IMG/VR virus record: IMGVR_UViG_3300031087_000513
Reading direction: 5' to 3' (one strand)
Source of the DNA: an uncultured virus (IMG/VR IMGVR_UViG_3300031087_000513)
Taxonomy: Duplodnaviria; Heunggongvirae; Uroviricota; Caudoviricetes
Length of the DNA: 52,544 bases
A program made the translations under genes and the position numbers. Positions within the stretch are counted from its first letter, which is position 1; every line of letters begins with the position of its first letter. Shown piece after piece: positions 2,353 through 50,502 of the stretch. A model generated the notes under the pieces. That model ran no database searches, was not told the DNA's origin, and was given only the letters and a program-made list of their open reading frames with translations.

Positions 2353-2363
2353 TTGTTAGAAAT
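2353..2363 (+). promoter_or_regulatory. TYGTTAGRWAT motif (candidate element-specific promoter)
   Basis: TTGTTAGAAAT, 6 nt before ATG 2370; same motif before four other genes. Confidence 0.65.
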
Positions 2364-2369
2364 ACTTAC

Positions 2370-2936
2370 ATGAGTAAACCTGGTGTATGCGAAGCAAAAG
2401 ACCCAACAACATGTAGACATCATGGGACCCAAGCTGTCATTGAACAAGCAGTTCAAGTCCGAGATATCAACGACTACTTTGCAGCGCGTGAAGCAGATGC
2501 TGAGGAGAAAGAACGTCAGCGCGAATTCATTTTCTCCCTTATTGAATCAGACCTGAAAAAAGTTGAATGGGATGGTTACGAAGTAAAAGTCCGCAGTCTC
2601 ATCCACAGCCTAACAAATAAATACGGTACCCCAAAAATTGGAAGAACTCGTGCTGTATTTGACAGTCAAGACGGTAACGTCATCAAAGTCCCCTTCAATG
2701 ATGAAGGAGAGATGGCGAATGGTTATGAACACAAAGCAGGCAAACAGCAGGACCCATACATTCCAGTAGCTGCTAACCACTTTGACCAGATAGATGGAGT
2801 TGATGTGTTAGTCATGGAGAAAGTTCGTGAGCATCGTTTCAAGTCATACAATGATGTTCCAGAATGGGTAGGTTCAGTAGATTCAGGTCAAGTCGGATAT
2901 GACCGTAACGGGAACCTTGTCGCATACGATTTGTAA
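2370..2936 (+). CDS. minimal protein-kinase-like fold protein with N-terminal Cys-Cys-His tag
   Basis: G-RTRAVF, VIKVP, helix E, LVMEKV, VDSGQVGY and VAYDL resemble kinase subdomains. Confidence 0.55.
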   Translation: MSKPGVCEAKDPTTCRHHGTQAVIEQAVQVRDINDYFAAREADAEEKERQREFIFSLIESDLKKVEWDGYEVKVRSLIHSLTNKYGTPKIGRTRAVFDSQDGNVIKVPFNDEGEMANGYEHKAGKQQDPYIPVAANHFDQIDGVDVLVMEKVREHRFKSYNDVPEWVGSVDSGQVGYDRNGNLVAYDL

Positions 2937-2955
2937 CCCTCCGCGCATAGGGTAG

Positions 2956-3288
2956 ATGAACACTCCAATTGAAAGGCACATCTACCCTATGTTTGACCGT
3001 GAAATGCTGACTGAAACTGTTGTTCCAACTCTCCTGAGTCGTGAAACGCCAGAACAACAAGGCTCCTATCTGTACGGTTTACTACTCTCCACAGAATATC
3101 ATGCGCTTAGTGATGCAGTAGATGCTATGGAAGCCGCAGCCATCATTACAGAAGAGAATGAAACAGTCTCTACTGAATACTTAGTTGCTATGCAGCTGCT
3201 TCTCAAATGGATTGAATGTAGAGCTGATGCTGACAAAATTCCAGCAGACAAACGTCACTGGCGAACAGCTACCACAGTTCAACCGTAA
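2956..3288 (+). CDS. hypothetical protein
   Basis: 110-aa ORF directly following previous gene. Confidence 0.65.
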   Translation: MNTPIERHIYPMFDREMLTETVVPTLLSRETPEQQGSYLYGLLLSTEYHALSDAVDAMEAAAIITEENETVSTEYLVAMQLLLKWIECRADADKIPADKRHWRTATTVQP

Positions 3289-3959
3289 GAAGACTCCGTG
3301 GTTTTCTTCCCCACAAACTCAGGAAAACCAGGAATGCGTGTCTGAACCTTCCAGTCAACGTTCAAGGCGAAGAAGCTTGTAAAGTCCGTGCGGTACATGG
3401 TCTTATCCTCAGCTTCAAAATACCCCAAAGGCTCCTTGAACTCATCCTCCGCATAGGAACTCACTCCACGGAACACTGCAATCTTACCGTTTGGAAGAAG
3501 AACCTCATGAGGGCGAAGCTTGTTGAAATTTGGAGCTGCGAACTTCCGTGAAGATAACTTCACCATCTCAGTGTTCGCATACCAACGAGGAATCCGCGCC
3601 ACATGAAGCGGCTTCGAGTATGCGGAAGCAATTTTACTCTGCCAGTTGCGAGTCATACCAAAATCAAGAGCCTGCTGAAGCCACTCGTCATTATGGCCAT
3701 GGCGGGAAGAAAGAACAGCGTGCGCCATCTCATGACACATAGCGTTATGGAAGAACTGGTCATCCGCGCCATAAATATCGAAAGCACTCACATGAATCTC
3801 ACGCTTATCATAATTGCAAGACGCATGACGAGAGTAACGGAATTTTGGGTGGTCAAACTGCACTGTCCAACCATCAGCGGACAAGCCAGCCTTATCCAGC
3901 ATGGACTGACCAAGCTGCAACGCTTCAAGCGCTTCCAGGGTTCCCATTGCGTTTACCAT
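3279..3959 (-). CDS. SprT-like zinc metalloprotease
   Basis: HEMAH...HGH..W motif with upstream ASCNY; exact start uncertain. Confidence 0.8.
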   Translation of the reverse strand: MVNAMGTLEALEALQLGQSMLDKAGLSADGWTVQFDHPKFRYSRHASCNYDKREIHVSAFDIYGADDQFFHNAMCHEMAHAVLSSRHGHNDEWLQQALDFGMTRNWQSKIASAYSKPLHVARIPRWYANTEMVKLSSRKFAAPNFNKLRPHEVLLPNGKIAVFRGVSSYAEDEFKEPLGYFEAEDKTMYRTDFTSFFALNVDWKVQTRIPGFPEFVGKKTTESSYG

Positions 3960-4035
3960 CTCTCCAAGATAAATATACCTCATCCTATCATGGACAAGGT
4001 TGATCGTGCAACTCAAAATGTGGTACAATATTTCC

Positions 4036-4557
4036 ATGAACGACATCCTCACGATCCAGCCAGGTGAAACTCCAGAAGAGTACCGTGCACGTCTTGTTAG
4101 CATCCTCAACAAGGAAGACATTATTACCAGTGCTTACAAAGTACTGCATAAGCTTCGCACATTCTTCTCTCCTTACAACCTCAACCCTGACTCAATGTTT
4201 TTCTCAGAGAAAACCAACGCCATTCCAGGGTTTGACATGTACAAGCTCAACCCAGCCTACAATAGCCGCCAGGCTCATGAAGTCCTCACCAATCTTCTCC
4301 GTGTGCATTTCCTGCTTACCAGCAGCGACCCACGTTTAGCTGTGAACAGCACAGGTATCAATCGCATGCTCACACATTTGGAAGATACACTCTACGAAAT
4401 TGCTGGATCACCAGACGAGGACACAGACTTCCTCATCAGCCAGACCCGTCAGCAGCTGTTCGAGCTGGATTTGCTTGATTTTGAAAGTAACATCCATGCT
4501 TTACAGAGTGAACACTTCCGCCTCTTCGGAGAACGGAAAGAAGAACCACTGTTCTGA
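4036..4557 (+). CDS. hypothetical protein
   Basis: Leaderless ATG after TGGTACAAT extended -10. Confidence 0.7.
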   Translation: MNDILTIQPGETPEEYRARLVSILNKEDIITSAYKVLHKLRTFFSPYNLNPDSMFFSEKTNAIPGFDMYKLNPAYNSRQAHEVLTNLLRVHFLLTSSDPRLAVNSTGINRMLTHLEDTLYEIAGSPDEDTDFLISQTRQQLFELDLLDFESNIHALQSEHFRLFGERKEEPLF

Positions 4558-4641
4558 CTAACGAAAAACCATCTTGCTGATGTAGGATGGTTTTTCTCAT
4601 TAATTGAAGCTCTTTGACCAAGAAATGATAGCAATGGGATT

Positions 4642-4827
4642 ATGAAAGCATTAAAACGTTCCGCCACAGCGGTAGAAGAAGCAATTAGAGGATTGGGCTA
4701 TACTCAAATATTAATCATTACCGTCTTTGTTGGCATACCTGTGTTATGGGCAATGATAGCACCTGATAACTTCTGGCATACAATGATTGAGCTTGGCTCT
4801 ATGGGTACAGGCCCAATATGGCCATGA
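4642..4827 (+). CDS. small membrane protein
   Basis: 61 aa, one hydrophobic segment. Confidence 0.5.
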   Translation: MKALKRSATAVEEAIRGLGYTQILIITVFVGIPVLWAMIAPDNFWHTMIELGSMGTGPIWP

Positions 4828-5030
4828 TGGAAGACACTATGGTTATGAAAATCAAAGCATCTGTGCGAGCTATCTTAGCTTGGATACAGTTGAACCCAAT
4901 ATCGCTATTCCTGTTTATCCTTGCATTTGCAATGGGAATTGCATTTATCATTTACCCGCATATGATGGATTGGACAAATGTTCAATGCGGTGGTGAACCC
5001 TGTACGACATTACCAATTACGTTTGAATAG
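4818..5030 (+). CDS. small membrane protein
   Basis: 70 aa, one hydrophobic segment, overlaps previous gene. Confidence 0.5.
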   Translation: MAMMEDTMVMKIKASVRAILAWIQLNPISLFLFILAFAMGIAFIIYPHMMDWTNVQCGGEPCTTLPITFE

Positions 5031-5048
5031 CAAATCTGGATAGTAGAA

Positions 5049-5097
5049 TGAATAAGTAAGAGCCATGACTTTGGTAGTCATGGCTCTTACTTATTCA
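5049..5097. terminator. bidirectional terminator, 22-bp perfect stem
   Basis: TGAATAAGTAAGAGCCATGACT-5nt-AGTCATGGCTCTTACTTATTCA between convergent genes. Confidence 0.85.
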
Positions 5098-5735
5098 AGG
5101 GACTGGAATGTGTTGAGTGCGAAGTCATTTCTGCGCCGGAACGAATCATCAGTTCTGACGTGATTTTCCCGCACCCACTTCGCAACATGGGTCTGGAAGT
5201 CATCGTAGTGGAAGCTCCCAGCGTCACGGATAACAAATCCTTCGGAAGTATCCTCATCGTGGTTCTTCTCCCATGCGGCAGTGGCTTCGTTGAAGTCAGT
5301 ACCACGGTAGAGAAGAGGAACGGTGTGAAGGTTGAGCAGTTCAGCCCATTCCGTCATCTCGTCCCAGCTCAGAAGACGGTCATCCTCCCACACTGCGAAC
5401 AGCATGAACGGAGAAGGGAGGTCATCATAATCTACTGAACGACGACCCTGCAAGGACTCACCAGAGAGACGGATGTTCTCAGGAAGGTCCCAACGGATGC
5501 GAGTCCAGATACGACGAGCATAGGCATCCCACGGGTGGTTTGTTCCATCAACGCTTCTTGCAAAAGCACGATTGCGCGTTAAATTAAAGTTTGACCCGTC
5601 CAATTTTTCTGTCGAAATAAGTTCAATTCCCGACTGAAGATACTCCAAGGTTTCAGGAGCAACACGCTTGTCATCTGCGCTCAAAGTCTTTGAGGTAGGC
5701 AGGTGGAACGTTCGCGGATACTTTCGGATACTCAT
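5091..5735 (-). CDS. RNA ligase family protein
   Basis: KYPRTFHLP, TEKLDGSN (motif I), EGFVIR (IV), AKWVR (V). Confidence 0.9.
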   Translation of the reverse strand: MSIRKYPRTFHLPTSKTLSADDKRVAPETLEYLQSGIELISTEKLDGSNFNLTRNRAFARSVDGTNHPWDAYARRIWTRIRWDLPENIRLSGESLQGRRSVDYDDLPSPFMLFAVWEDDRLLSWDEMTEWAELLNLHTVPLLYRGTDFNEATAAWEKNHDEDTSEGFVIRDAGSFHYDDFQTHVAKWVRENHVRTDDSFRRRNDFALNTFQSLE

Positions 5736-5846
5736 CGTTACTCACCTTCCTTTCATCTCATTGGTAAGAACATAGGAAGACTATCACAACCTTCGGGCTT
5801 CTGCAAGCTCTGTGGTAACATACTACTCTACCCGATAGGCAACTCT

Positions 5847-6080
5847 ATGCACATCATCCACGGAGCAACGTACCGCGACACTCGTACAGGTGAAAACGCG
5901 GTACTGTTGGGACTCAAAGTTTCGCAGACTGTCGTAAAGTACGATAACGGAGCGAAGTCGATCCCTCATGCTGAGTTCAATGAGTTCTTTGTTGAAACTG
6001 GAATTCATGACCATGAGAGTTTTTGCTGTGATGAACATGATCTTCACACAATGCCTCATAAGGGTTGCATCCTTCGTTGA
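5847..6080 (+). CDS. hypothetical protein with C-terminal Cys/His cluster
   Basis: ORF 5703..6080; likely start MHIIHG; CC..H..H..PH.GC. Confidence 0.6.
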   Translation: MHIIHGATYRDTRTGENAVLLGLKVSQTVVKYDNGAKSIPHAEFNEFFVETGIHDHESFCCDEHDLHTMPHKGCILR

Positions 6081-6122
6081 TTCTCTCTTCCGTTTTGGTT
6101 TACGCTGTGGTAGGATGAAAGC

Positions 6123-6590
6123 ATGACTGATTACAAGCTTCGTTATAAGACTCCTCTTGTGCTTCCTTTTCAGGGCATGGAGGAGTCAGGTGCAGCGTTC
6201 CGTCGCGTACTGAACGCCTGGCTTTTCAGCAAGCGGGAGGCTCAGTATTTCCTGATGGAGGGACCTATCCCTGGTGTTGATGACAGTAAGTTCCGTGAGC
6301 TGTTGAACCGCTACATGGAGCAGAAGCAGGCTGAGGCTCAGCAGGATGTTGAAGCTGTTGGTGCTGACACGGTGATGAGCGGGACTCCGCATCTTCTTCC
6401 GCGTTTTGTGGAGAATGGTGACCTTGTTTCCTGCGATGAGCCTTCTGTTGAGGCTTTCGTGTACGAGAATGCTACTGGCCGCTGGGTTCCACTTCGCGTT
6501 GGGGACTTCATTGTCTCTGAGACGAACGACCCATGGGTGAGTAGCTACCTGGTTGGAATTTTGGGACGCGTTCCAAAGGATGAGGTTTAA
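6123..6590 (+). CDS. hypothetical protein
   Basis: Leaderless after TGGTAGGAT; VGDFIV motif. Confidence 0.7.
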   Translation: MTDYKLRYKTPLVLPFQGMEESGAAFRRVLNAWLFSKREAQYFLMEGPIPGVDDSKFRELLNRYMEQKQAEAQQDVEAVGADTVMSGTPHLLPRFVENGDLVSCDEPSVEAFVYENATGRWVPLRVGDFIVSETNDPWVSSYLVGILGRVPKDEV

Positions 6591-6598
6591 TAACTCTC

Positions 6599-6994
6599 AT
6601 GTTCATTCATGGTTCTACGGATAAACTGCTGACTATCGCCAGTTTGGTTGATGGTTGGGGCGGCGGGAAGGCAGCTGTTTCTGTTGTGTGCTTGAATGCA
6701 GCAGAACAGGTGCTTTCTTTGTGCGCTGAGCAGGGGTTCGCTGAGCCAGATCAGATTTTCCCTATTTCCGCTGGTTTGTTCCTCAACTGGTTCGATTTAC
6801 CGTACACGACAAACCTGACTATCTTTTTTGATGAGGATTCAAAAGATAGGGTTCGTGTTCGTGTGAATGATTATGACACGCGGATTATTTCAGAGGAAAC
6901 ATTCGTCTCAACGAAGATGGCGAGTATTTTGGAGTTTGTTTCCCGCAAGTTCGGGGAGCACGAAAGTGATTTGACGCGCTATCAGCGTGTCTGA
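6599..6994 (+). CDS. hypothetical protein (GW-x-G/P-x-I-F-P family, paralog 1)
   Basis: L..DGWGG..A.VS...PDQIFP...L.W pattern shared with 6987 and 15638. Confidence 0.65.
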   Translation: MFIHGSTDKLLTIASLVDGWGGGKAAVSVVCLNAAEQVLSLCAEQGFAEPDQIFPISAGLFLNWFDLPYTTNLTIFFDEDSKDRVRVRVNDYDTRIISEETFVSTKMASILEFVSRKFGEHESDLTRYQRV

Positions 6995-7403
6995 GAAGAG
7001 AAAAGGTATAACTATGACAGATGTTGAATACCCACAGGAGCTACAAGGATTCCTTTCCCGTATGGAAACTGTTCGAAATTTCGGTGAAGGATGGGATGAG
7101 GGAACAGCTGGTCCTGTTTCTGAGGAGTCTTTACAGGCTGCTTTGCGTTTAGTACTGCATGCCCATGAAGACGGTATTGCTACTCCTGGATTGTTCCCGA
7201 TGGAATTTTCTGGCGCACAGTCAGGTGTTACTATTGAATGGTCCTCCCCGTATTATGTGGTGAGTGTTGAAGTTCGCCCTGATGGCAAGCGTTTTGATTT
7301 GTTTGATTTGAACGTTGAAAGCAAAGACGTAACAACACAGTTAGATAATGCAGATGAGACACTTGCGAAGACATTTATCTCAGCTGCCCTTAGTGAAATT
7401 TGA
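6987..7403 (+). CDS. hypothetical protein (paralog 2)
   Basis: GWDEG.A.PVS...PGLFP...GVTIEW. Confidence 0.7.
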   Translation: MSEKRKGITMTDVEYPQELQGFLSRMETVRNFGEGWDEGTAGPVSEESLQAALRLVLHAHEDGIATPGLFPMEFSGAQSGVTIEWSSPYYVVSVEVRPDGKRFDLFDLNVESKDVTTQLDNADETLAKTFISAALSEI

Positions 7404-7416
7404 GAGGAATACTATA

Positions 7417-7683
7417 ATGCCTTTACTTAATACTGCTGGATTGTCCCGACTCGCCGCTCAGCGACGAGATGAGATTGCTGAGCTGAGTCGCGCGACTGAG
7501 CGAGCTGTTGTTATCTTGAATGCTTCCCCAGAGGGCATTCTGGAAAGAAAATTATGTGAGCAGTTGAAGAGCGAGTGTTCAACAACTCAGTCTGTAGCTG
7601 CTTCTGCAGTGGATTATCTTCGGTCTTCTGGCAAAGCCACAAAGAACTGGGAGACAGGGCTACTTACTCCTACCTACAAGTAA
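7417..7683 (+). CDS. hypothetical protein, possible winged helix
   Basis: GAGGA SD; helical ORF ending in L..G..beta hairpin pattern. Confidence 0.6.
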   Translation: MPLLNTAGLSRLAAQRRDEIAELSRATERAVVILNASPEGILERKLCEQLKSECSTTQSVAASAVDYLRSSGKATKNWETGLLTPTYK

Positions 7684-7691
7684 CCCTCAAA

Positions 7692-7976
7692 CTACCTGAG
7701 CGGGGCAAGACAGCGTTGCACTTCCCCTGCAAGATAGGATTCAATTGGTTGACCTTTTCGCCATACAGTGTAATGGTCGCTTACTTCATGCTGACCTTCA
7801 CCTGCATATGCTGGTTGTCTCGTGAGAGTTTTCTCACCGTAAAGCCACCATTGTTCTTCAATGACGGTTCGGCTTGTATCATACCTGATGACAGCTGGAC
7901 CGTCTTCACGATGGAGTGAGCCTTTTTCATCACGCCATTCTTCATACTGCTCTGTATGCTGGGTAAGCATGCTCAT
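7692..7976 (-). CDS. HREDGPA-motif protein
   Basis: LHREDGPAVI..EQWW..G repeat unit. Confidence 0.6.
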   Translation of the reverse strand: MSMLTQHTEQYEEWRDEKGSLHREDGPAVIRYDTSRTVIEEQWWLYGEKTLTRQPAYAGEGQHEVSDHYTVWRKGQPIESYLAGEVQRCLAPLR

Positions 7977-8017
7977 GAGTATCCCCTTCCTCAACCCTAT
8001 GTTTTGGTTATCTGCAT

Positions 8018-8028
8018 TCGTTAGAAAT
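8018..8028 (+). promoter_or_regulatory. TYGTTAGRWAT motif
   Basis: TCGTTAGAAAT, 5 nt before ATG 8034. Confidence 0.65.
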
Positions 8029-8033
8029 ACAGC

Positions 8034-9020
8034 ATGTGTTATCCAAAACCTGGTCCCCGTTGTTCAGCTCATGCTGCTGAACTCTTACAAAAAGCCAAAA
8101 TCCGTAGACGCGCTGCGTCAGGGTTTGACTTTGAGGCTCGCCAAGCTGTTGACGATGCGCAGTTAGAGTATGATGCAACTCCTGCCGGTATACGTGAACT
8201 TGAACGTCGTATTGGTCAAGATGTGAACAGTTCCAGCAGTGACGGAACATATGAACTTCGTTTGCAGTTAGGTCGTGCAAAACGTGAAGAGCGGCTTGCT
8301 GCTGTGAAGATGAAAGATCAAGGAGATGTTCTCCACGAAGGACCATCCCAGGAAGCATCTTACCCAGCTTCTATGCAGGCTTTCACTACAAAGACAGAGG
8401 AATATCCTTCTGAAAGTTTAGAGCAAACTGGTCCTGAAATCACGGCTATGGTGCAGGATTCCACGCATTGGGTTCGTAAACTCAACACTGATGAGATTGA
8501 AGCTGCTTCCTGGTACACTTCTAACGGTTCCAGCCATGTCAATAATTATCTGTTAGGGCATGACCAAGAACAGTATGGGCAGAAGATTGACAAGAAGCAA
8601 GCAGCTGAGGCGGTAGCTCACTTAGATTCTGCATTAGAGAAAGCGGAGCGGAAGACTCCGGTGAAGCTGTACCGCGGCATCTCTCATGACATTTTAGAAC
8701 GTGAAGGTTTCCAGTATGAGGAAGAAGACAAGTATATTGATGCGAAACTTCCTGTTGGCTCCACGTTTGAATCACCTGTTTTCCAGTCTTCCACTCTTGA
8801 CTTCAAACGTGGGCGTGGCTTTGCCACAAGTCAGGTAATGTTGGAGATTCTGGCGAAGAAGGCAGCTCCTGTGTCAAACATCAGTGCATGGGGTGTCAGC
8901 GAGTCTGAGTACATTCTGCCTCGAAACCAAAAATATCGCGTCGTTGGCATCCGTGAGCATTCAACTACTCATGGTTCATTCACAAGTGTCACGAAAATCG
9001 TTCAGGTTGAGCAAATCTAA
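8034..9020 (+). CDS. VIP2/Alt-type (R-S-E) ADP-ribosyltransferase with N-terminal Cys-Cys-His tag
   Basis: YT..G...VN.YL, LYRG, FQSSTLD, ESEYILPRN motifs. Confidence 0.88.
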   Translation: MCYPKPGPRCSAHAAELLQKAKIRRRAASGFDFEARQAVDDAQLEYDATPAGIRELERRIGQDVNSSSSDGTYELRLQLGRAKREERLAAVKMKDQGDVLHEGPSQEASYPASMQAFTTKTEEYPSESLEQTGPEITAMVQDSTHWVRKLNTDEIEAASWYTSNGSSHVNNYLLGHDQEQYGQKIDKKQAAEAVAHLDSALEKAERKTPVKLYRGISHDILEREGFQYEEEDKYIDAKLPVGSTFESPVFQSSTLDFKRGRGFATSQVMLEILAKKAAPVSNISAWGVSESEYILPRNQKYRVVGIREHSTTHGSFTSVTKIVQVEQI

Positions 9021-9102
9021 GGTCAGGAGTTGACAGGCAGGTTCCCTACTGCTACTGTAAGTGTTGTTAGAGCAACATTTCATTGAGTAGAGAGAATCAA
9101 CA

Positions 9103-10698
9103 ATGTCCTCGTACGGTTCGTCGTCTCGCAGCGCGGGATTTGTCGGCGGTATCTTCGCCCTTGCGGCAGTCATCGGTATTGGTTGGCTGTTCTGGTGGGT
9201 CTGGGGTCCGACTGTGGCTCACACGTTCGGTGCTTCCTGGCGTGGTGGCTGGCTGTTCCTTCTGGGCGTGGTCCTCGTCATTGGCCTGGCTCTCGTTGCG
9301 ACTTTCATTTACGAGCAGTCTCCTGGGCTGGCGGTAGTAGCAATCATCGCAGCGCTGGGCATCACGGCAGTCGTCATCACTGGCTGGGTGCGTATCAACT
9401 ACGATACGGGGCACAAGTATGCGGAGGATATCAAGAAGTCCTCTGAGACTGTCTCCTACGACCAGCGTGTGCCGTATGAGGTTGCGCAGGCTTCTGCTTC
9501 TCAGAACATGAAGAACGTCACTGGTGAGCTTCAGGAGTCCAAGCACCTTGCTGACGCTGGTGAGCATGGCACCTGGGATGCCCTTGTTATTCGCCGTGGT
9601 TGGGCGCAGGGTTACGAGGCTGTTCAGACGCTGAATGCTCCGCTGTTCGGTTCTGTGAACGACAAGGACGCTTCGTTCTGCAAGTTCAACCGTGACGCTC
9701 AGCTTCGCATCGGTGGTGGACTCCCGCACAACAACCTGAGTAAGGCTGCTCTGAGCAAGGTTCCGCTGAACGTGAACTTTGACCGTAGCGACGTGTACGC
9801 TTACTGCGATGGGGACACTCCGCTTGTCGTTGTCCCGATGAAGCAGGTCAGCGGTTGGTACGCTCCGACCTGGAAGGCTTGGGGTATCGTGGTCTACAAC
9901 GGTAAGACGGGCGCACTGAACGCTTACAACAAGGTTTCTGATGTTGAGAAGTTTGAGGGTCCGACGTACCCGATTAGCCTTGCCGCTCAGCAGCGTGACG
10001 GTCTTGACTCCACGGGTTCCTTCTCGGACCACTGGTTCAAGCGAGTCGGTTACAATGCTTCCAGTGACAACCCTGATGCTCAGCTTCGCGTGTATGACTC
10101 CACTGACTCCGCTTACGTGACTGCTCTCAACCCGAAGGGTTCCTCGCAGAGCATTGTTGGTACGGTTTCTGTGGACTCTAAGTTCACAGGTTCTGGTAAG
10201 CGCAACCCGCTTGAATTGGACACTCTGGGGAACTCCCACACTCTTCCGTCCATCAATTCGCAGCAGCAGACGATTGGTAACACGTATTCCAACCTGAACG
10301 GCTTTGCTGTCAGCCCTGACAAGGGTGGATATGAGTTCTACGAGATTGTTCCTGGTAAGAACGGGGCCTGGACTGCTTCCATCGGTCGTAATCTGAGCAT
10401 CCTGTACCGTGCAACGGTTGAGGTGAAGGATGGTTCCACTGTCGTCACTTTGTACGATGCTAACGGTGACAAGGTTGACGGTCTGGGGAACGGCAGCACT
10501 GACCAGTCTGAGGGCAACACTAACGACTCTGACAACGGCGGTACTGTGACGGTTCCGCTGCCTGAGGGCGCTAAGAGCCTGTCGGACCTGTCTGACGCTC
10601 AGTTGCAGGAGCTTGGTCAGAATGTCATCAAGGAGCTTGGTAAGCGAGCGAACCAGACTCCTGAGGCAACAGCCTCAGCAACTCCCGCAGGGAAGTAA
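9103..10698 (+). CDS. membrane protein, about 3 TM helices plus large extracytoplasmic domain
   Basis: 531-aa ORF, hydrophobic N-terminus; TTGACA(9030)-17-TACTGT promoter. Confidence 0.85.
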   Translation: MSSYGSSSRSAGFVGGIFALAAVIGIGWLFWWVWGPTVAHTFGASWRGGWLFLLGVVLVIGLALVATFIYEQSPGLAVVAIIAALGITAVVITGWVRINYDTGHKYAEDIKKSSETVSYDQRVPYEVAQASASQNMKNVTGELQESKHLADAGEHGTWDALVIRRGWAQGYEAVQTLNAPLFGSVNDKDASFCKFNRDAQLRIGGGLPHNNLSKAALSKVPLNVNFDRSDVYAYCDGDTPLVVVPMKQVSGWYAPTWKAWGIVVYNGKTGALNAYNKVSDVEKFEGPTYPISLAAQQRDGLDSTGSFSDHWFKRVGYNASSDNPDAQLRVYDSTDSAYVTALNPKGSSQSIVGTVSVDSKFTGSGKRNPLELDTLGNSHTLPSINSQQQTIGNTYSNLNGFAVSPDKGGYEFYEIVPGKNGAWTASIGRNLSILYRATVEVKDGSTVVTLYDANGDKVDGLGNGSTDQSEGNTNDSDNGGTVTVPLPEGAKSLSDLSDAQLQELGQNVIKELGKRANQTPEATASATPAGK

Positions 10699-10888
10699 GT
10701 ACATAACCTCAATGAGGTCATGACGCTTGAACGAAAGCCTTCTGTCGGTTTTCAAGTAATGCACTCATGGCCTCATTGAGGTTTTCCCAATGAGTAAGTA
10801 TCTCAGAGAGCTTGTTCGGAGCTGTCTTCCAGTAATCTCCTTCACGAAGGGCTTGACTTTTCCTTCGTGAAGGAGTATTGTCGTACCC

Positions 10889-11461
10889 ATGAGAGAGAAG
10901 ACTAAGCTTCGTTACCAGATTCAGGTCCGCACGGCTGATGGGGAGGGATGGGAGAACCGTCCTTCTGGCACGAGCCTGTTGGCGAATGACCTGTGGAGCC
11001 TCCACCAGCGTGTCTGGGGTATGATTCGTAACGGTAGGGCAACCTACGAGACGGTTCGTATCTGGGACAACGAGGAGAAGCAGGTTTCTGAGGTTCCGAC
11101 CTCTTGCCCTGTCGACCCTGCTCGCAGGTTGGAGATTAACAAGCGCACTGCTGAGCGTAAGGCTCAGGAGGAGATTCGTTATGCCCAGGAGCGTGCTGAG
11201 GCTGAGGTGCGTTACCAGGCGTACCTCGTTGCGGAGGAGACTGCTCGCCAGGCACTTCGCGCGACGAAGGTTGAGACGGTTGACCAGTTCAACCAGCTTG
11301 ACCGCCTTCAGCGAGACCTTCTTGTTGGTGACGTTGCTTCGGCATACCGTGACACTGACATTGACGGTTACGGCGATGAGGGTGCAGGGTATGACGTGGA
11401 TAAGTTCACTGAGAAGCTTCTTGCTATGGGCTGGACGTATAACCCTCAGGGTGTACGTTAA
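10889..11461 (+). CDS. hypothetical protein
   Basis: AAGGAG SD, codon usage like neighbours. Confidence 0.75.
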   Translation: MREKTKLRYQIQVRTADGEGWENRPSGTSLLANDLWSLHQRVWGMIRNGRATYETVRIWDNEEKQVSEVPTSCPVDPARRLEINKRTAERKAQEEIRYAQERAEAEVRYQAYLVAEETARQALRATKVETVDQFNQLDRLQRDLLVGDVASAYRDTDIDGYGDEGAGYDVDKFTEKLLAMGWTYNPQGVR

Positions 11462-11883
11462 TGTCCTTGCTGGAACCTCCTGCTTATGTGAACTGGCGCT
11501 CCCGCGCTCTTACAGCGGAAGCTGCTGTCACTGAGCTGGAACTTCGGTTTGAAAATCAGGGGAAAGTGGGTCCGCATCGCGTGATTGCACGTGGTGCGGC
11601 TCACACCCCTGAGGGCGAGCTGGTTTATAATGAAGGCTATGCTGGCGGGTCAGGGCATGCAAAATGTTCCTGCGGCTGGATTTCACCCCGTTCTTACATG
11701 GCAGGGAACTCTCGCAAGACTGTTCATCGTGAGCATGCTGAAATTGAGAACTTTCACTCTCAGCTGAATCAGGTTCGCCATATTGTTGAGCAGATGGAAG
11801 GAAACCTCCAAGCAGGACGTTCTCCCTACTTGGAAGCGTACCGAGCGCTTGCGAAAGCACTTGGTCTTCCCGAAAAGTTTTGA
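11461..11883 (+). CDS. hypothetical protein with CxCGW..H..H zinc motif
   Basis: TAATG coupling; AKCSCGW...HREH. Confidence 0.7.
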   Translation: MSLLEPPAYVNWRSRALTAEAAVTELELRFENQGKVGPHRVIARGAAHTPEGELVYNEGYAGGSGHAKCSCGWISPRSYMAGNSRKTVHREHAEIENFHSQLNQVRHIVEQMEGNLQAGRSPYLEAYRALAKALGLPEKF

Positions 11884-11942
11884 AGTAACACCAACTATTG
11901 TAGTCAGTTGCCTACTATTGTAGGCGGAAAGAAGAAGCACTT

Positions 11943-12629
11943 ATGAGCGACATTGAGGACCTGGAAGAGCAGGAATCGGTCCAGAAGATGAAGCAGTTGT
12001 TCCAGCCAAAGGATGAAATGAACGAAGCTGGTGAAATCACGATTCAAATTTTCAAGAACCGCCTAGGGCAGCTCCGCGCTGACCCTCGGCTTGATAACCA
12101 TCCTGGGGATACTCAGGATGGTCCTTGGAACGAGAACCATCCTGTCACCATGGAGGAGTCTGTTCTTGGAGCGCAGCGGAACACAAACTCCCGCTTTTTG
12201 GAGCTGCTTGCTGAGGAAGCGAATGGTGCTGTTGAGACTGACCTTCCTGAGGGTGAACCCCTGGTGATTACCCTCATCGGTCCTATCCGTACCTGGTGGG
12301 GCCGTTTGGAGTCACCTGAGTATGCTGAGTACAACACTTGGCGTAAAGCTATCCAGTCCGCTGTGGTTCATGCAGGTCACCTTGTGTACTCCCCTCATCT
12401 GGCCTGGAAGGGTGCCTGGCATGAGAAGGCTCAGCGAGCAAACGATATGGCTATTATCCAGTCGGATGTTGTCATTGTAATGACTCCACCTGATACGGTA
12501 GCGGTTGGTACTGCTGCTGAGATTGCAGTGGCGAAGGAGCATAACGTTCCGTTGATTGATGCCCCTCCTGGGGATGAAAACGCGCTACGTGCCCTTCTGG
12601 CGCAGCTGGCTGCTGTTCGCGTCTCGTAG
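11943..12629 (+). CDS. nucleoside 2-deoxyribosyltransferase-like domain protein
   Basis: TLIGP, VYSPH, D..II.SDVVIV, S/VGT..EI..A...VP in C-terminal half. Confidence 0.6.
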   Translation: MSDIEDLEEQESVQKMKQLFQPKDEMNEAGEITIQIFKNRLGQLRADPRLDNHPGDTQDGPWNENHPVTMEESVLGAQRNTNSRFLELLAEEANGAVETDLPEGEPLVITLIGPIRTWWGRLESPEYAEYNTWRKAIQSAVVHAGHLVYSPHLAWKGAWHEKAQRANDMAIIQSDVVIVMTPPDTVAVGTAAEIAVAKEHNVPLIDAPPGDENALRALLAQLAAVRVS

Positions 12630-17699: not shown

Positions 17700-17765
17700 G
17701 GTGGTTCAATCTTTCTGAGTCGTTTTGTACTAACATCTTACCACAGAAAGAACTGAACTCGCTAC

Positions 17766-27924: not shown

Positions 27925-27958
27925 GTACCGATTATAACAGATGAAGGAAGGAACTGCA

Positions 27959-29670: not shown

Positions 29671-29681
29671 ATTCCTAACAA
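29671..29681 (-). promoter_or_regulatory. TYGTTAGRWAT motif
   Basis: TTGTTAGGAAT, 5 nt before ATG 29665. Confidence 0.65.
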
Positions 29682-30616: not shown

Positions 30617-30627
30617 ATTCCTAACGA
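30617..30627 (-). promoter_or_regulatory. TYGTTAGRWAT motif
   Basis: TCGTTAGGAAT, 6 nt before ATG 30610. Confidence 0.65.
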
Positions 30628-35725: not shown

Positions 35726-35974
35726 ACTGTTTCTCCAAAATGTTTCTCAAGTCAAAATATAGCTCACTTGGTATCAAACCAAGCATTTGAGCAAGCTTAT
35801 ATGCTACAAACCAGTTCGGTTATCTGCATATGCTGTTCATTATTGCATTATTTCTTCTCATTCACTCCTAATTATATCAGATTCTGACTACATAAGCAAG
35901 ATCATTTGACAGAACCCCATGAAGCTGATAGAGTTTCTCTTGTATCTATAAGAGAGAGCAAAGGAGGTGGCATC

Positions 35975-36340: not shown

Positions 36341-37432
36341 TTATGAGATTTTTTCTACGGTGATATCATCAACGTAAATAGTGTTTGAATAGTACGCTTT
36401 GTGAGAAACATTGAAATTGATACTTGAATTAACCTTTCCTGCACTTGCTTTTGCAACAACTTCATACGTAACTTGTGTCCATTTATTATCTGCTGGAACA
36501 GGAGAAACGCCTTTTAGAGTTTTATAGCTACTATTACCAAAAGCCGTGAAATCAACAGAAGATAATCCAGCTTGCTCTGGAGACCAGTACACCCATGATG
36601 TTACACGATATGTTTCTCCAGCAACAATTCCAGGAACACTCCGTGAGACAGACCTTGTGACATCGCTTGAATCAGAAGGGGAAATGTATTTAAGAGAGTA
36701 AGAACCTGTATGAGGATATTTTATAGCTGTTACCGAAGTCCCATAAGGGTAAAGATTTGGACTAAAACCCTGAACAGTGCTGTCTTCAAAATTATATGTC
36801 GCAATAAGAGTAGGACCTGGGTCTACGGTTGGTGCAGGAGTAGGAGTAGTAGGGCTTCCGCTACCAGGAGTTGTTCCAGATACTGGCATTGTTGGAATTT
36901 GGCCAGCGCCAGTATCTACGCCAGTGTCAACTGTTCCAGGAGTTTGGGTACCTGAACCAATTGGAGTCACCGTACTATTTACACAAGGCACAGAACCGGT
37001 GTACTCAACAGGGATTTTCTTGCTGTTTGTCGCACTAAACCACTTACCTGAACCGCTTTTAGCATAAGCATGGTAATCGTTACCATCAATAGTAGCAACG
37101 ACACAAAATAGACCTTCTTTGTTCAAGTTAAGCAGTTCATTCGCAGCCAGTTCGCCTGAACCAGCGAACGAATTACGGAAGGAACCTACTGTTCCATCAG
37201 CTTTTTTCAACGAAACATTTGCATCGCTGCTGAGTCCAAAGAATGCATTCTCAGCGATATGAACAGATTCTAATTGCTGTTTCGCTGCTTTGTCTTGGGA
37301 CCAAGGGATGACGGCAAAAACGGTAGCAGCGATGACCCCACCAATCAAACCAATGATGATGATACCAACCATAATGGAGGCTAAATCAATCGCAGCACGC
37401 GAAGATATAAGGACTTTATGAATTTTATTCAT
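36341..37432 (-). CDS. pilin-like protein with CBM4/9-like domain (copy 2)
   Basis: Same N-terminal helix, YAKSGSGKWF, Thr/Pro linker, CBM-like C-terminus. Confidence 0.75.
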   Translation of the reverse strand: MNKIHKVLISSRAAIDLASIMVGIIIIGLIGGVIAATVFAVIPWSQDKAAKQQLESVHIAENAFFGLSSDANVSLKKADGTVGSFRNSFAGSGELAANELLNLNKEGLFCVVATIDGNDYHAYAKSGSGKWFSATNSKKIPVEYTGSVPCVNSTVTPIGSGTQTPGTVDTGVDTGAGQIPTMPVSGTTPGSGSPTTPTPAPTVDPGPTLIATYNFEDSTVQGFSPNLYPYGTSVTAIKYPHTGSYSLKYISPSDSSDVTRSVSRSVPGIVAGETYRVTSWVYWSPEQAGLSSVDFTAFGNSSYKTLKGVSPVPADNKWTQVTYEVVAKASAGKVNSSINFNVSHKAYYSNTIYVDDITVEKIS

Positions 37433-38608: not shown

Positions 38609-39664
38609 TTAGGAAATACGTTCTACTTTGACATCATCAACGTAATACTCCGCTGTTCCAGGATTGTTCTTCTGCATCTGAAAAGCTAAATCCTGGCTAC
38701 TGCTTGTTGTTGCAGTCATCTCAAATGAATACTGCTTCCAAGCATTCAAGGTCGGGGTTCTATCTCCAGTTACTGTGGAGTAGTAAGAACCGAAAGCATA
38801 AATGTCTGGCCATTTTCCTTGCTTCACATAAATCCAGGCACTAACACGATATTTTGTACCAGCCACAATATTTGGAACTGTGCCCGAAGTTGTACGAATA
38901 GTGGCAGTATCAGTACCGTTGACGTATAAGCTTTTTGCGCCGTGTCCAGCTGCAGGAGCTGTTGCAATATATTGGGTGCCGTATGTTTGAGGGTTACGGA
39001 AGATGCTTGTACTGCCATCTTCAAAATCGTAAGAAGCGACAGTAGTATATACAGGTACAGGGGTCGTAGGGGTTGTACCAGCATCAGTCCCTGTAGTAGG
39101 AGCGGTACCGATGCTACCCGTTCCATCATCAGCTTTAGGATTCACAGTACCAGCTAGGGAAGGAGTGCTTGCAGTGGTTGCAGTAAGACAAGGAGCTTCG
39201 ATGCCCGCATAGATACTCGGTTGTGTCTTACCGCTGGTGATGTAGAACCATTTGCCTGAACCGCTTTTAGAGTAAGCATGGTAATCCTTACCGTCAGTAG
39301 TAGCGATAACACAGTAGTTACCAGCAGCATTCAAGGTAAGAAGATTATTTACAGCTAACCCAGCGCTACCAGTGAAAGTGCTATTCAATACTACCTGATT
39401 TGGGTCTGACTGACTAATGGGAGAACTTGAAGCATCTTGTAAGCTTGCGTCTTTACTCGTGGACAACCCACGGTAAGCAGATTCAGCAGAAGCAATAGGG
39501 TCAAGCTGCTGTTTCGCTGCATTGTCCTGTGCCCAAGGAATAACAGCGAACACGGTCGCAGCGATAACACCGCCAATAAGGCCAATCACGATAATACCAA
39601 CCATGATGGATGCAAGGTCAATCGCAGCACGCGACGACTTTAGGGCATTATTAAGTTTGAGCAT
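38609..39664 (-). CDS. pilin-like protein with CBM4/9-like domain (copy 3)
   Basis: Same architecture as copies 1 and 2. Confidence 0.75.
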   Translation of the reverse strand: MLKLNNALKSSRAAIDLASIMVGIIVIGLIGGVIAATVFAVIPWAQDNAAKQQLDPIASAESAYRGLSTSKDASLQDASSSPISQSDPNQVVLNSTFTGSAGLAVNNLLTLNAAGNYCVIATTDGKDYHAYSKSGSGKWFYITSGKTQPSIYAGIEAPCLTATTASTPSLAGTVNPKADDGTGSIGTAPTTGTDAGTTPTTPVPVYTTVASYDFEDGSTSIFRNPQTYGTQYIATAPAAGHGAKSLYVNGTDTATIRTTSGTVPNIVAGTKYRVSAWIYVKQGKWPDIYAFGSYYSTVTGDRTPTLNAWKQYSFEMTATTSSSQDLAFQMQKNNPGTAEYYVDDVKVERIS

Positions 39665-48120: not shown

Positions 48121-48861
48121 ATGCCCTCAGCAGTTCGTTCCACCCGTTTCGGCCTGGAAGTTCAGACCGTTCAGTTTACCAATCCTCGCACGCATCATGA
48201 CATCAACATCATCGGGGTTGTCCACATTGCTCATTCTTCTTTCTGGACTCAGCTGCAGGAGAAGATGAACGAAGCGTCCAAGGATGGTGTCCTGCATCTT
48301 GAAGGTGTGAAGCGTTCCATGGGTCCTCTCCGTGAGAAGGACTCTGAGCGTGTGGATAAGCTGATGAAGATGGCTGGTATCTCTCAGAAGCTTGCAAAGC
48401 TCACCAAGCTCACGTTCCAGAAGGATGCGTTGAAGGTTGACGGTCTGAACGCGAAGAACGTTGATGCTTATGCTGAGGATGTTGCTCTTCGTATTGATGA
48501 GCAGACTCTGGCGAAGATGTCTGCTTCTGCTGAGAAGATTGCGAGCAGCAAGGCGAAGGAAGAGGACCTGGCAACCATCGTCGTGTGGGTGCTGAAGAAC
48601 ATGGGTTGGATTGGCAATGTCCAGAAGTTCGTAAAGTTCTTCTCTCCGACCAGCCTGAGCATGGACAGCGCTATTCTGGACTATCGCAACAAAATTGCTA
48701 TTGGTGAGGCTCTCAAGGAGAAGGAGCATGTCACTCTCGTCTGGGGTGCAGGTCACATTCCTGGCATGACTCGCCTTCTGAAGCGTGCTGGCTACATTGA
48801 GCGCGGTAGCTCCTGGGCTACTGCTGTTCCCAGCTCCTACCAGGTCCCTGCTGCCTCCTAA
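48121..48861 (+). CDS. TraB/GumN (Tiki)-like metalloprotein
   Basis: IG..H.A, LEGV, L..RN, V.WGAGH..GM. Confidence 0.65.
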   Translation: MPSAVRSTRFGLEVQTVQFTNPRTHHDINIIGVVHIAHSSFWTQLQEKMNEASKDGVLHLEGVKRSMGPLREKDSERVDKLMKMAGISQKLAKLTKLTFQKDALKVDGLNAKNVDAYAEDVALRIDEQTLAKMSASAEKIASSKAKEEDLATIVVWVLKNMGWIGNVQKFVKFFSPTSLSMDSAILDYRNKIAIGEALKEKEHVTLVWGAGHIPGMTRLLKRAGYIERGSSWATAVPSSYQVPAAS

Positions 48862-48980
48862 CAGGTTTTTATAAGGCCCTCCACTGCTTCTGTGTGGAGG
48901 GCCTTATTCGTGCTTTGAGCGCTTGCTGAATCAATCTGATCTATGGTACAATTGACTATCTATAGTCAAGGAGTTAGAAC

Positions 48981-49292
48981 ATGAAACTGGTTCGTTATAC
49001 TGGTGAAAGCGACTGGTCAGCATTGTATGTTGACGGGAAGCTGCATACTGTTGGAGACCATTACCTGGTTGATGAAGCCATCCAGGTGCTCGTTGGTGTT
49101 GAAGAGCACCAAAGCGAAGACTTCATGAAGGGTGGGAACTATTCTGAGGATGTTGCGAAGAGCCTTGATGAGCTGAATGAATGGGTAGCAAAGCGTGACC
49201 ATGAGGCTGCTGAGGCTTCCCGTGAAGAGAAGCTTGCGAAGGCTGCTGAGCTGATTGCGGAAGCTGAGAAGCTCCGTCAGGAAGCCGAATAG
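48981..49292 (+). CDS. hypothetical protein
   Basis: AAGGAG SD; DW..LYVDGKL...GDH. Confidence 0.75.
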   Translation: MKLVRYTGESDWSALYVDGKLHTVGDHYLVDEAIQVLVGVEEHQSEDFMKGGNYSEDVAKSLDELNEWVAKRDHEAAEASREEKLAKAAELIAEAEKLRQEAE

Positions 49293-49349
49293 AACTAAGC
49301 TGTGGGCAAGCGGAAGGGCCAAGTGAGTACAATGCTCACTTGGCCCTTC

Positions 49350-49360
49350 TTGTTAGATAT
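49350..49360 (+). promoter_or_regulatory. TYGTTAGRWAT motif
   Basis: TTGTTAGATAT, 5 nt before ATG 49366, directly after hairpin 49313-49349. Confidence 0.65.
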
Positions 49361-49365
49361 AACGT

Positions 49366-50502
49366 ATGACGAAACACATTGCACAATCTGGTAAGAACGC
49401 TGGACAGTGGGTAAATTGCACAGCAGAGCTGCAGTGTACTTTGAAGAGTCGTCATATTGACAATAGCTATTTGCAGGCAACAAAAACTTGGCTCCGTGAA
49501 GAAAAGCAAATCAAGAAGAATATGCCTCAAATCACTCCGCAAGATGTTGATAATTTTATGCAGTCCCCAAACGCAGTCATTCTTGTTGAAGCAGCTGAAA
49601 AGAAAACAGCTATTGGACAAGAACCTGGGGAGAAAGCACTTGAACGTATTCGAGAAGAAACCCGAGTTACTGAACTGAGAAACCGCCTTCGCTATCAAAG
49701 AAATTTTGCTCCTGAGCTGACAACAGAAGCTCAACAAGTTTTTATGAGCGATGAGGAAAAAGAAAAGCGCCGTCTCAGTGAAATGTTGAGTTCTTTCTTC
49801 GGTATCTCTAAAACACCCAAGAAAGATGCATACAAACGTTTACCGTATGATGAGGAAAATCCTCGTGCATACAAGCCTACCAAGTTGTATTACAATGGTG
49901 CAGACGAGCCTTGGTATATCGCGCCTGCCGGTCGCACAGGAATTCAATGTCATAAATGTCAAAATTTTGCCTCTTATGAAGCTGTATCAGAACAGTTGAT
50001 GAAAGGAAGCGTGTCCCATGTGTGTTCACGCTGCGGAACTTCAATTATTCCAGGTGATGAAGGAACGTTTATCAATGACCAAGGTCTGAGAATGCTGGAT
50101 AAGCGCAATGTTGAAAAAGAAGTTTGGTACCATTCCACTCAGAATGCAAATTGGGTTGAAGATATCAGTAAAGAAGACCCCATTGGTGGATTTCCATTAG
50201 CGCACTTCGGTACAAAAACTGCTTCCGAAATGCGAGCTTCACGTCTGTACGCTGAAGAATGGGACAAGCGACCTTTTTACCTGTATGAGCTCCGTGTAAA
50301 GCCTGGCACTTATATCGCAAACTCTATCATAGAGGATGAAGATGAAGATGCGCCTCAGGTATCAAAAGAAATACCTGATAATGTCGTATATAGCAAAAAC
50401 GGCATCACCAGGTATTTCAATTACTGGGAAGACCCAGGTTCAGTAAGTCTTATTTCCTCTGTATCCAACTTTGAAGTTATCAGTAAAAAATCTATGCTAT
50501 AA
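49366..50502 (+). CDS. protein with N-terminal His/Cys tag, central zinc ribbon and C-terminal ADP-ribosyltransferase-like fold
   Basis: WYHST, HFGT..A...R, Y.N..ED.GS.S resemble ART-PolyVal-type domains; CHKC..CSRC. Confidence 0.55.
   Translation: MTKHIAQSGKNAGQWVNCTAELQCTLKSRHIDNSYLQATKTWLREEKQIKKNMPQITPQDVDNFMQSPNAVILVEAAEKKTAIGQEPGEKALERIREETRVTELRNRLRYQRNFAPELTTEAQQVFMSDEEKEKRRLSEMLSSFFGISKTPKKDAYKRLPYDEENPRAYKPTKLYYNGADEPWYIAPAGRTGIQCHKCQNFASYEAVSEQLMKGSVSHVCSRCGTSIIPGDEGTFINDQGLRMLDKRNVEKEVWYHSTQNANWVEDISKEDPIGGFPLAHFGTKTASEMRASRLYAEEWDKRPFYLYELRVKPGTYIANSIIEDEDEDAPQVSKEIPDNVVYSKNGITRYFNYWEDPGSVSLISSVSNFEVISKKSML

Follow-up and report, generated by a model that had tools for sequence, protein, structure and literature searches.

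A recurrent start-linked DNA motif and an N-terminal Cys/His tag on five genes of a giant phage-like element

Why should five genes with unlike bodies carry the same DNA word directly before their start codons and a similar cysteine/histidine peptide at the beginning of their proteins? The question is raised by a 52,544-bp stretch of DNA from an uncultured virus (IMG/VR record IMGVR_UViG_3300031087_000513), which is referred to here as the window. The genes are named by their start codons: 2370, 8034, 30610, 29665, and 49366, with 30610 and 29665 being tandem paralogs. An initial annotation had read the DNA word TYGTTAGRWAT as the promoter of a dedicated sigma factor and the peptide as a zinc-binding tag that addresses host-takeover effectors to the virion or to another delivery machine. 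The observation behind it is confirmed: both motif and tag exist, they occur together much more often than chance would allow, and divergent relatives have kept the two jointly. The five motif-linked tagged genes look like a new way to mark effectors for a common fate. To the whole statement, i.e., a co-regulated set of tagged effectors with a common partner of any kind, we assign a probability of about 0.45.

Position and conservation of the DNA motif

The exact word TYGTTAGRWAT occurs five times in the window (both strands), compared to a mean of 0.17 and a maximum of one in 100 dinucleotide-preserving shuffles. All five sites end 5–6 nt before the ATG of a long open reading frame (ORF), with gaps of 6, 5, 5, 6, and 5 nt (Table 1). 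The stretch from 18 to 4 nt upstream of the start has no Shine-Dalgarno (SD)-like word in any of the five genes, and TAnnnT at a spacer of 4–9 nt is likewise lacking in all of them. The placement of the motif, the lack of an SD, and the departure from a TAnnnT −10 box were thus all described correctly at the outset. When the shorter core GTTAGRWAT is used, for which about 1.6 chance matches are expected by our own arithmetic, a sixth match is found (GTTAGATAT, 32976-32984, minus strand). It has no ATG after it and sits antisense within the SprT-like gene 32958-33314; the 878,612-bp metagenome contig L001 has the same match. This site is either a chance occurrence or an antisense start.

Contig L002 is syntenic with 24.9–31.9 kb of the window, and the proteins are 30–36% identical. 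Both paralogs are kept there, both are tagged, and each has TGTTAGAAAT 5–6 nt before its ATG, while the intergenic DNA outside the motif differs from that of the window. That TGTTAGAAAT is kept before both paralogs at this level of protein identity is strong evidence of selection on the motif. On contig L004, the paralog homologue (29% identity) shows TCGTTAGTTAT-N5-ATG, and a second tagged gene has CGTTATAGAT at equal distance from its ATG. In the alignment of the nine sites (five from the window and two each from L002 and L004), YGTTA(G)nnAT alone is conserved, with nothing conserved upstream, and the start codon is ATG in 9/9.

Leaderless actinobacterial genes typically carry a TAnnnT −10 box 6–8 nt before the start codon, as in mycobacterial leaderless transcripts. 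Eight other genes of the window fit this scheme with TATACT, TAGAAT, TAGGAT, TAAACT, or TAGTCT 6–7 nt before the start codon. If the A of the ATG is taken as the start, TAGRWA of the motif falls at −12 to −7, the following T at −6, and YG at −15/−14. TAGRWA(T) hence occupies the position of the TAnnnT boxes at the other leaderless genes of the window. In addition, at window 49317-49345, L002 3048, and L004 742, the motif is directly preceded by a GC-rich hairpin with a T-rich tail, which fills the −35 region at these three of the nine sites. As transcripts from upstream should stop at such terminators, a new start would be needed within about 20 nt of the ATG. Hence, the promoter would lie within the motif and the mRNAs would be leaderless. 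This geometry and the abutting terminators support the promoter reading proposed earlier, and we consider it probable that YGTTAGRWAT is a promoter giving leaderless mRNA. Judged by these positions, the first transcribed base would be the A of the ATG or a direct neighbour of it.

In the proposed mechanism, each of the five genes would be its own small transcription unit. YGTTAGRWAT would act as an extended −10-like promoter without a −35 element, with leaderless transcription from or beside the A of the ATG. Since the element is found at this set of genes only and does not conform to TAnnnT, a different sigma factor or a dedicated activator probably takes part in its recognition, which would give the set its own timing. 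Two known promoter classes were compared and rejected. The sites do not belong to the sigma-70-type leaderless TAnnnT boxes, as the hexamer is TAGRWA followed by T. Promoters of extracytoplasmic function (ECF) sigma factors have a GGAAC-like −35 and a CGTT-like −10 set 16–17 nt apart; an ECF-type reading of YGTT was dropped since the nine aligned sites have no conserved −35 and three have hairpins there.

Promoters without a −35 element are known in two forms, the extended −10 (TGnTATAAT) and the T4 late promoter TATAAATA, which is read by gp55. The motif resembles them in having a single A/T-rich element near −10, a conserved YGT just upstream, and no conserved −35. It differs in its consensus and in the presumably leaderless transcripts. 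TAGAAATA is a one-base variant of the T4 late box, which also works without a −35. A scan of window positions 1-12000 with sigma-70 and terminator consensus sequences gave counts not above those of shuffled DNA.

The motif could alternatively be an operator or a translational element of the 5′ region, through which a phage protein or RNA would control the genes during or after their transcription from upstream promoters. The model for this is the start-associated sequence (SAS) of Cluster K mycobacteriophages, GGGATAGGAGCCC, which contains an SD core and is thought to be translational according to the part of PMC3203893 used here. Like the SAS, the motif is an asymmetric conserved word a few nt before the ATG of some unrelated genes in an actinobacterial virus. 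The distance of 5–6 nt resembles that of the SAS (3–7 bp from starts, mostly ATG; PMC3203893, in part), and the T that standard −10 boxes have at −7 is missing from TAGRWA. The window motif differs from the SAS by having no SD and by its place at the −10 position of leaderless genes. Membership in the SAS family, as the same part of PMC3203893 defines it (a 13-bp word with an AGGAG core), was rejected since no SD-like word precedes the five starts. Obvious anti-SD complementarity is also missing, TAGRWA sits exactly where the other leaderless genes of the window have TAnnnT, and upstream transcripts should end at the three terminator-like hairpins. An operator or translational element is therefore rather improbable, and the promoter remains the preferred reading of the motif.

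The tag and the proteins that carry it

All five N-terminal Cys/His peptides are present as first described. The strict pattern C-x5-7-C-x2-H has 20 matches over the six frames of the window; among the accepted genes, it is found only at the N-termini of 2370, 8034, 29665, and 30610. Gene 49366 has the looser C-x5-C-x5-H, so that the Cys-Cys-His tag originally ascribed to all five genes holds in its strict form for four. In the curated set of 52 window genes, 4/5 motif genes are tagged versus 0/47 others (Fisher one-sided p = 1.8e-5). With the tandem paralogs counted once, the association stays (p = 1.9e-4). Motif and tag hence co-occur above chance in both counts. The tag starts at different distances from Met1, namely at residues 2, 7, 15, and 18. 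We are highly confident that four of the five genes share a modular tag.

If the spacing is relaxed to x5-9, the HNH endonuclease 50702 also matches (C-x9-C-x2-H), without the DNA motif. This protein (50702-51466, plus strand) starts with MICSLDFCNKEVIAKQVCKGHY, a C-x4-C-x9-C-x2-H finger in which the last three ligands are tag-like. The resemblance hints at a possible origin of the tag knuckle. The tag peptide strings were not found in a full-text literature search, which had subscription papers and bioRxiv supplements outside its scope.

Table 1 Features of the window discussed in the text
Feature	Position	Strand	Remarks
Promoter-like motif TTGTTAGAAAT	2353..2363	+	6 nt before ATG 2370
Tagged gene 1, 188 aa	2370..2936	+	Short tag CEAKDPTTCRHHG, residues 7-19; possibly a minimal protein-kinase-like body
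Promoter-like motif TCGTTAGAAAT	8018..8028	+	5 nt before ATG 8034
Tagged gene 2, 328 aa, predicted C3/Alt/VIP2-type ADP-ribosyltransferase	8034..9020	+	R214, S252, E290-x-E292
N-terminal MCYPKPGPRCSAHA knuckle and predicted four-helix module, residues 1-105 of gene 2	8034..8348	+	From fold and homologues
Promoter-like motif TCGTTAGGAAT	30617..30627	-	6 nt before ATG 30610
Tagged gene 3, 301 aa	29705..30610	-	Tag GNGKFCYSGPTCRMHG; C-terminal Cys3-His domain matches phrog_14788
Promoter-like motif TTGTTAGGAAT	29671..29681	-	5 nt before ATG 29665
Tagged gene 4, 297 aa	28772..29665	-	Tag GNGKFCHSGPECRIHG; tandem paralog of gene 3, 39% identity
Terminator-like GC-rich hairpin, 11-bp stem	49317..49345	+	Ends 4 nt before motif; no room for a -35 element
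Promoter-like motif TTGTTAGATAT	49350..49360	+	5 nt before ATG 49366
Gene 5, 378 aa	49366..50502	+	Looser N-terminal CTAELQCTLKSRH; C-terminal half with weak RES / ART-PolyVal structural leads
RNA-repair-type genes	1500-2309, 5091-5735, 16549-18281, 19225-19788	-	Domains given in the text

Gene 2370: The ORF extends upstream to an ATG at 2337. The start at 2370 is favoured because 7/15 family members start with MSK, MTT, or MSR just before the tag. In the structural model, the body reaches a predicted local distance difference test (pLDDT) of about 90. Residues 1-6 and 19-31 are below 50, and the means of 10-residue blocks are 42–58 through residue 40. Foldseek places OspG, SteC, NleH, Rio2, APH, and PknB at the top, with weak scores (best E 1.3e-3); VIA-align likewise gives mostly kinases at weak Z of 5–6.4 (below 8). 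The matches are mainly small effector kinases, Rio kinases, and aminoglycoside kinases. K106, E112, E120, D171, and D187 are invariant in the 15 sequences of the family. The modelled fold hence suggests, weakly, a kinase-like body.

Gene 8034: The protein matches PF03496 with E 1.8e-19 (70.3 bits versus a cut-off of 23.4). R214, E290, and E292 are invariant and S252 is nearly so in 40 sequences. The model built with 40 sequences has a pLDDT of 94.4 and a predicted template modelling score (pTM) of 0.92. An N-terminal loop is followed by helices 11-27, 33-47, 50-63, and 72-91 and then by an ADP-ribosyltransferase (ART) domain like those of C3, Certhrax, iota, and VIP2, which are also found by Foldseek at E of about 1e-9 to 5e-10. 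By its family score and with the catalytic Arg, the Ser-Thr-Ser region, and ExE all in place, gene 8034 encodes an intact R-S-ExE ART.

Genes 30610 and 29665: The paralogs share a C-terminal domain in which C225, C255, C258, H262, and H265 are invariant. It is matched by phrog_14788, a family of unknown function. Nothing similar to the paralog family was found in the GTDB species genomes searched or in INPHARED.

Gene 49366: No Pfam or PHROG family matches this protein, and no relatives were retrieved from the GTDB or IMG/VR DNA collections. Atlas rows with RES, ART-PolyVal, and DUF3990 align to residues of about 250-378 with TM of 0.26–0.30, at a model pLDDT of 0.52. As for the diverse bodies described initially, those of 8034 and the paralogs thus stand, while the kinase-like body of 2370 and the ART-like body of 49366 are weak leads.

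The tag types are found in further combinations. Among the 15 sequences of the gene 2370 family, which have the same body, seven carry xCxAKxPxxCRxHG, seven carry MCY(PK/T)(P)GPRCSxHA, and one has neither; in the MCY-type members, a helical stretch follows the tag. Relatives in jumbo phages match in the body only. The short tag of about 30 aa is the sole similarity between gene 2370 and an unrelated 348-aa protein of L004 (4466-5512; E 2e-5). In gene 8034, the MCY tag runs on into a module of about 100 aa (..AQxEYDATPAGxxELERR....DxGD). A search with the module region gave 51 proteins at E ≤ 0.1, and phmmer with residues 1-105 of gene 8034 gave 262 cluster representatives (50% identity) at E ≤ 1e-3, which make the tag the mark of a large unannotated domain family. 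Nearly all of the best 150 phmmer matches align from residue 1. A set of 180 proteins (P0026-P0205) was taken from the matches of both searches. MC-x7-C opens 178 of these; the exceptions are a fragment and an ankyrin protein, which is probably a false match.

Pfam was run on 129 of the 180 module proteins. ART was found in 43, DUF7226 in 3, and no family in 78; LPD29, RNase_T, T4 RNA ligase, YqaJ with RNase_T, and Ank/NACHT (internal, probably false) occurred once each. The MCY module is accordingly joined to ART, DUF7226, LPD29, RNase_T, RNA ligase, YqaJ, and kinase-like bodies. From these sequence combinations, the tag can be described as a swappable module with at least three sequence types.

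The module falls under no entry of Pfam, NCBIfam, PADLOC, or the PDB sequences. Neither NCBIfam nor PADLOC had a match with an E below 0.005, and when the module profile was compared with PDB sequences, nothing but coiled-coil-like matches at E ≥ 0.39 appeared. The ESM Atlas gave no usable match. The paralogs, the ART, and the MCY module are all without relatives in IMG/VR, whose sole relative of the kinase-like body is the distant, untagged L017. INPHARED phages have no match to P0004 and P0072 and match P0002 and P0019 in the bodies only. In the PLSDB plasmids, the ART domain alone is matched.

In a pattern search of GTDB, the MCY module appeared in Demequina only. A profile search of 401 genomes of the class of Demequina gave five other matches at E 0.002–0.007, which were treated as noise. 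Demequina sediminis NBRC 112286 is the only cellular genome in which the MCY module was found. Its chromosomal island contains three tagged genes (MCYKKPGPRCSPH, MCYPKPGPRCEGH, and MCKSIPEGGQRCRRH), two tyrosine integrases, a DNA methylase, a split DnaB, DUF2637, and two type IV pilins. The pilin genes adjoin tagged genes in the island, and pilin-like genes are also near tagged genes in the window. One Demequina protein (L010 6942-8303, minus strand) has the MCY tag followed by four small Cys-rich repeats (..Y.G.C..C...V....G............H....C) and is not enzyme-like. Both MCY-type Demequina genes that were checked have a Shine-Dalgarno and no TYGTTAG motif, which means that promoter and tag are separable. 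Judged by this distribution, the tag appears to be older and wider than the promoter.

In the largest tag type, the Cys pair is invariant and His is found at +3 in 148/178 proteins; the others have Y (15), S (7), W (3), V (3), A (1), or D (1). H101 is invariant in the ART-bodied members only; the different body types do not share a fourth metal ligand, as would be expected of a zinc finger or knuckle. With just two invariant Cys and the His replaced in 30/178, zinc binding by the tag, as proposed initially, is doubtful.

The module was also modelled as a pair. Two copies of residues 1-80 with a zinc ion gave an interface score (ipSAE) of 0.53, with the best control at 0.00. The ipSAE mark is reached by 20/30 solved homo-pairs and by 1/23 solved single chains, a calibration that holds only roughly here as the prediction used its own alignment and a riding ligand. 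Contact agreement between runs was at least 94% and partner pLDDT at least 79. The predicted interface is formed by helices 1-2 and includes residues 8-11 beside the second Cys.

A common address and its alternatives

We favour the following explanation. Each protein would start with a small swappable adaptor built on two invariant cysteines (C-x5-9-C, usually followed by x2-H). The adaptor would be fused to different bodies that modify macromolecules, such as an ADP-ribosyltransferase, a mini-kinase-like fold, a RES-like fold, and a Zn-domain protein, and would bring these effectors to one common partner. In the favoured version, the effectors would be packaged into the particle with the DNA of the element, and the adaptor would play the role of MuF/portal fusions or of the T4 capsid-targeting sequence (CTS). 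Such co-delivery is our tentative choice among the possible fates.

Four observations speak for co-delivery. First, the tag is strictly terminal. Second, tag types are interchangeable on one body. Third, fusions to portal, head-morphogenesis (MuF), or minor capsid proteins are frequent in the closest viral relatives of the gene 8034 ART and are found among its nearest viral structural matches. Fourth, the bodies are of the domain kinds known from polyvalent and head-packaged effectors (PMC5512222 and PMC9503650, each in part). In the portion of PMC9503650 drawn on here, Alt/VIP2 ARTs are described as often MuF-fused and packaged. ART, GNAT, and LPD domains are listed among the effectors that enter with the DNA of phages and conjugative elements in the corresponding portion of PMC5512222.

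MuF/portal-fused toxins and packaged Alt/VIP2 ARTs are built alike, with an N-terminal non-catalytic part followed by a variable C-terminal host-modifying enzyme. The gene 8034 ART is predicted to be of the same structural class as the packaged Alt/VIP2 ARTs (T4 Alt; PMC9503650, in part). The MCY module also shares with MuF toxins that a variable C-terminal toxin-like body follows a constant N-terminal part. Here, however, the N-terminal part is a new Cys-knuckle module without a MuF or portal domain. Membership in the MuF family was rejected, as no Pfam family was found at E ≤ 0.1 on the N-terminal 140 residues of gene 8034 or on the other four proteins. Moreover, the tagged genes are not beside head genes in the window.

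The T4 CTS resembles the tag as a short N-terminal peptide common to otherwise unrelated proteins. It is amphipathic, free of cysteine, and cut off by the prohead protease. The tag differs in being Cys-based, in having several types, one of which extends into a folded module of about 100 aa, and in that no protease gene, cleavage site, or cleavage consensus was identified. Polyvalent proteins and the tagged set overlap in their domains (ART, LPD29, nucleases); both are found in phage-like as well as integrative elements, and an early-phase action is proposed for both (PMC5512222, in part). In polyvalent proteins, according to the same part of that source, 2–15 domains are united in one polypeptide, while the window has separate small tagged effectors.

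A constant N-terminal part with polymorphic effector bodies is thus already known from MuF toxins, polymorphic toxins, and the T4 CTS. A start-associated DNA word is likewise known from Cluster K mycobacteriophages, with an SD core (PMC3203893, in part). New are the tag family itself, with its strict MC-x7-C start, and its coupling in a 0.8–0.9-Mb lineage to a −35-less promoter that would make leaderless transcripts.

Several points weigh against a common address for a co-regulated set. The tag of gene 49366 departs from the pattern. The third putative metal ligand, His, is replaced in 30/178 proteins, and a fourth conserved across the body types is missing. Profile comparison does not join the tag types (hhalign probabilities of 3% and 1%), so that the case for their kinship consists of the common pattern and of the exchange of types on a single body. 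With its high pTM, the ART model points to the long module as an integral part of the enzyme rather than a detachable signal. The dimer score may reflect an exposed core surface, as the modelled fragment was cut within helix 4 and lacked the ART domain. As described above, the Demequina genes carry the tag without the motif. Of the 32 Demequina island proteins scanned, none matched a capsid or terminase family, which means that the tag is not tied to a recognisable virion. Finally, Pfam on 63 window ORFs found no sigma factor and no structural gene, and PHROGs on 61 ORFs added none; an encoded sigma factor, which the initial annotation suggested looking for, was thus not found within the window.

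The main rival to delivery is that the tag is an intracellular working part, i.e., a knuckle stabilised by metal or disulfide (a helical bundle in the long type) that dimerises or docks on a shared host target. Nucleic acid and the transcription or translation machinery are possible targets, and the promoter would only set a common time of expression. The compact ART model, in which the module and the enzyme form one body (pTM 0.92), would fit this well. So would the predicted self-association of the module via helices 1-2 and the tagged genes of Demequina without detectable virion genes. Several bodies also act on nucleic acid (RNase T, RNA ligase, YqaJ). Against it, the short tag is predicted to be disordered and detached from its body. 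The interchange of two tag types on one body would be unusual for a substrate-binding part, and the strict position at residues 1-2 in 178/180 proteins suggests a terminal signal. We regard an intracellular part as possible, with less weight than co-delivery.

A secretion or export signal for polymorphic toxins, used by type VII secretion or by a pilus-related host machine, would be another explanation. Type VII secretion substrates are dimerising helical hairpins. The tagged proteins recall them with an N-terminal helical module that has a conserved turn (TPxG), a variable toxin-like C-terminus, and the predicted dimerisation into a helical bundle; the pilin-like genes near tagged genes in the window and in Demequina would also fit. 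However, the short tags have no helical module, and no WXG, LXG, or other secretion family was matched. An immunity-like gene pattern is missing beside the five genes, and a lytic element would gain little from exporting toxins. Export is thus very improbable. That one 5′ cassette (promoter and first codons) was copied and left a shared peptide without present function is hardly credible even though 2/5 genes are tandem paralogs, because the 11-nt motif is the only part of the five upstream regions and first codons that aligns, the three or four tag sequence types start at different distances from Met1, and the Cys/His columns are the best conserved N-terminal part in orthologues at 30–50% identity.

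Returning to co-delivery, a more specific picture can be drawn, which we consider unlikely to hold in all its parts. In giant actinobacterial mobile elements, two-cysteine “clasp” tags might load single-domain effectors into the particle or the transfer apparatus, with a metal possibly shared with the receptor or with a second tag. In the 0.8–0.9-Mb lineage, the effectors might be expressed from a private −35-less promoter, leaderless and under an element-encoded factor. If the tag is an address, effectors that are delivered or act together could be recognised by a sequence rule in very large uncultivated phage-like elements, and the tag would be a portable handle to load cargo. The motif is a candidate for a new transcription class, in which leaderless mRNA is made from an element of about 11 nt. 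The function of the tag is directly testable in D. sediminis NBRC 112286, a non-pathogenic cultured organism that has three genes with the tag.

The element, its probable host, and neighbouring genes

The window proteins are 99% identical to a stretch of L001, and relatives are found on contigs of 0.70–0.91 Mb, including contigs of 776,559 and 907,852 bp. The window is part of a giant uncultivated phage-like element of about 0.88 Mb, for which we make no claim of a proven phage. The contig is not present in the GTDB species genomes and phage collections searched; if viral, it would be an exceptionally large phage genome. The host is probably an actinobacterium (Actinomycetota), since leaderless genes have −10 boxes 6–7 nt before the start, one window protein is common to cluster C mycobacteriophages, the Atlas neighbours of gene 49366 are actinobacterial, and the tag is found in Demequina.

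The gene content of the window comprises RNA-repair genes, HNH endonucleases, a PurA-like gene, rnpA, an IscA-like gene, and many ORFs without a family. No tRNA and no Rfam family were found in the window. The RNA-repair-type set (minus strand; positions in Table 1) includes an HD domain, an RNA ligase, a metallophosphoesterase, the HAD domain of “Swiss Army Knife” RNA repair proteins, and SLOG/YpsA-like, Nudix, and PGDYG domains. The RNase P protein gene rnpA (35906-36292, plus strand) has a TTG start and lies inside the phage-like element. The IscA/HesB-like gene (27941-28288, plus strand) is 73% identical to its L002 counterpart.

Two further groups of paralogs share their N-termini. The tandem trio 20514-21371, 21458-22285, and 22306-23124 (all minus strand) begins with MGSFNV(S/G)CGIS; a clear Shine-Dalgarno precedes 3/3, and phrog_5960 matches the N-terminus in 2/3. 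Pilin-like N-termini (..SSRAAIDLASIMVGIIVIGLIGGVIA) are present on the three paralogs 34355-35335, 36341-37432, and 38609-39664 (all minus strand), two of which have CBM_4_9 domains. Each of the three is downstream of a common CCTTATTTT(T)ATCCCC word. Another word, GAGTAG(A), recurs 4–17 nt before the starts of 41-337 (−), 9103 (+), 23223-23867 (−), 38609-39664 (−), and 50702 (+) and may be a further start-linked signal.

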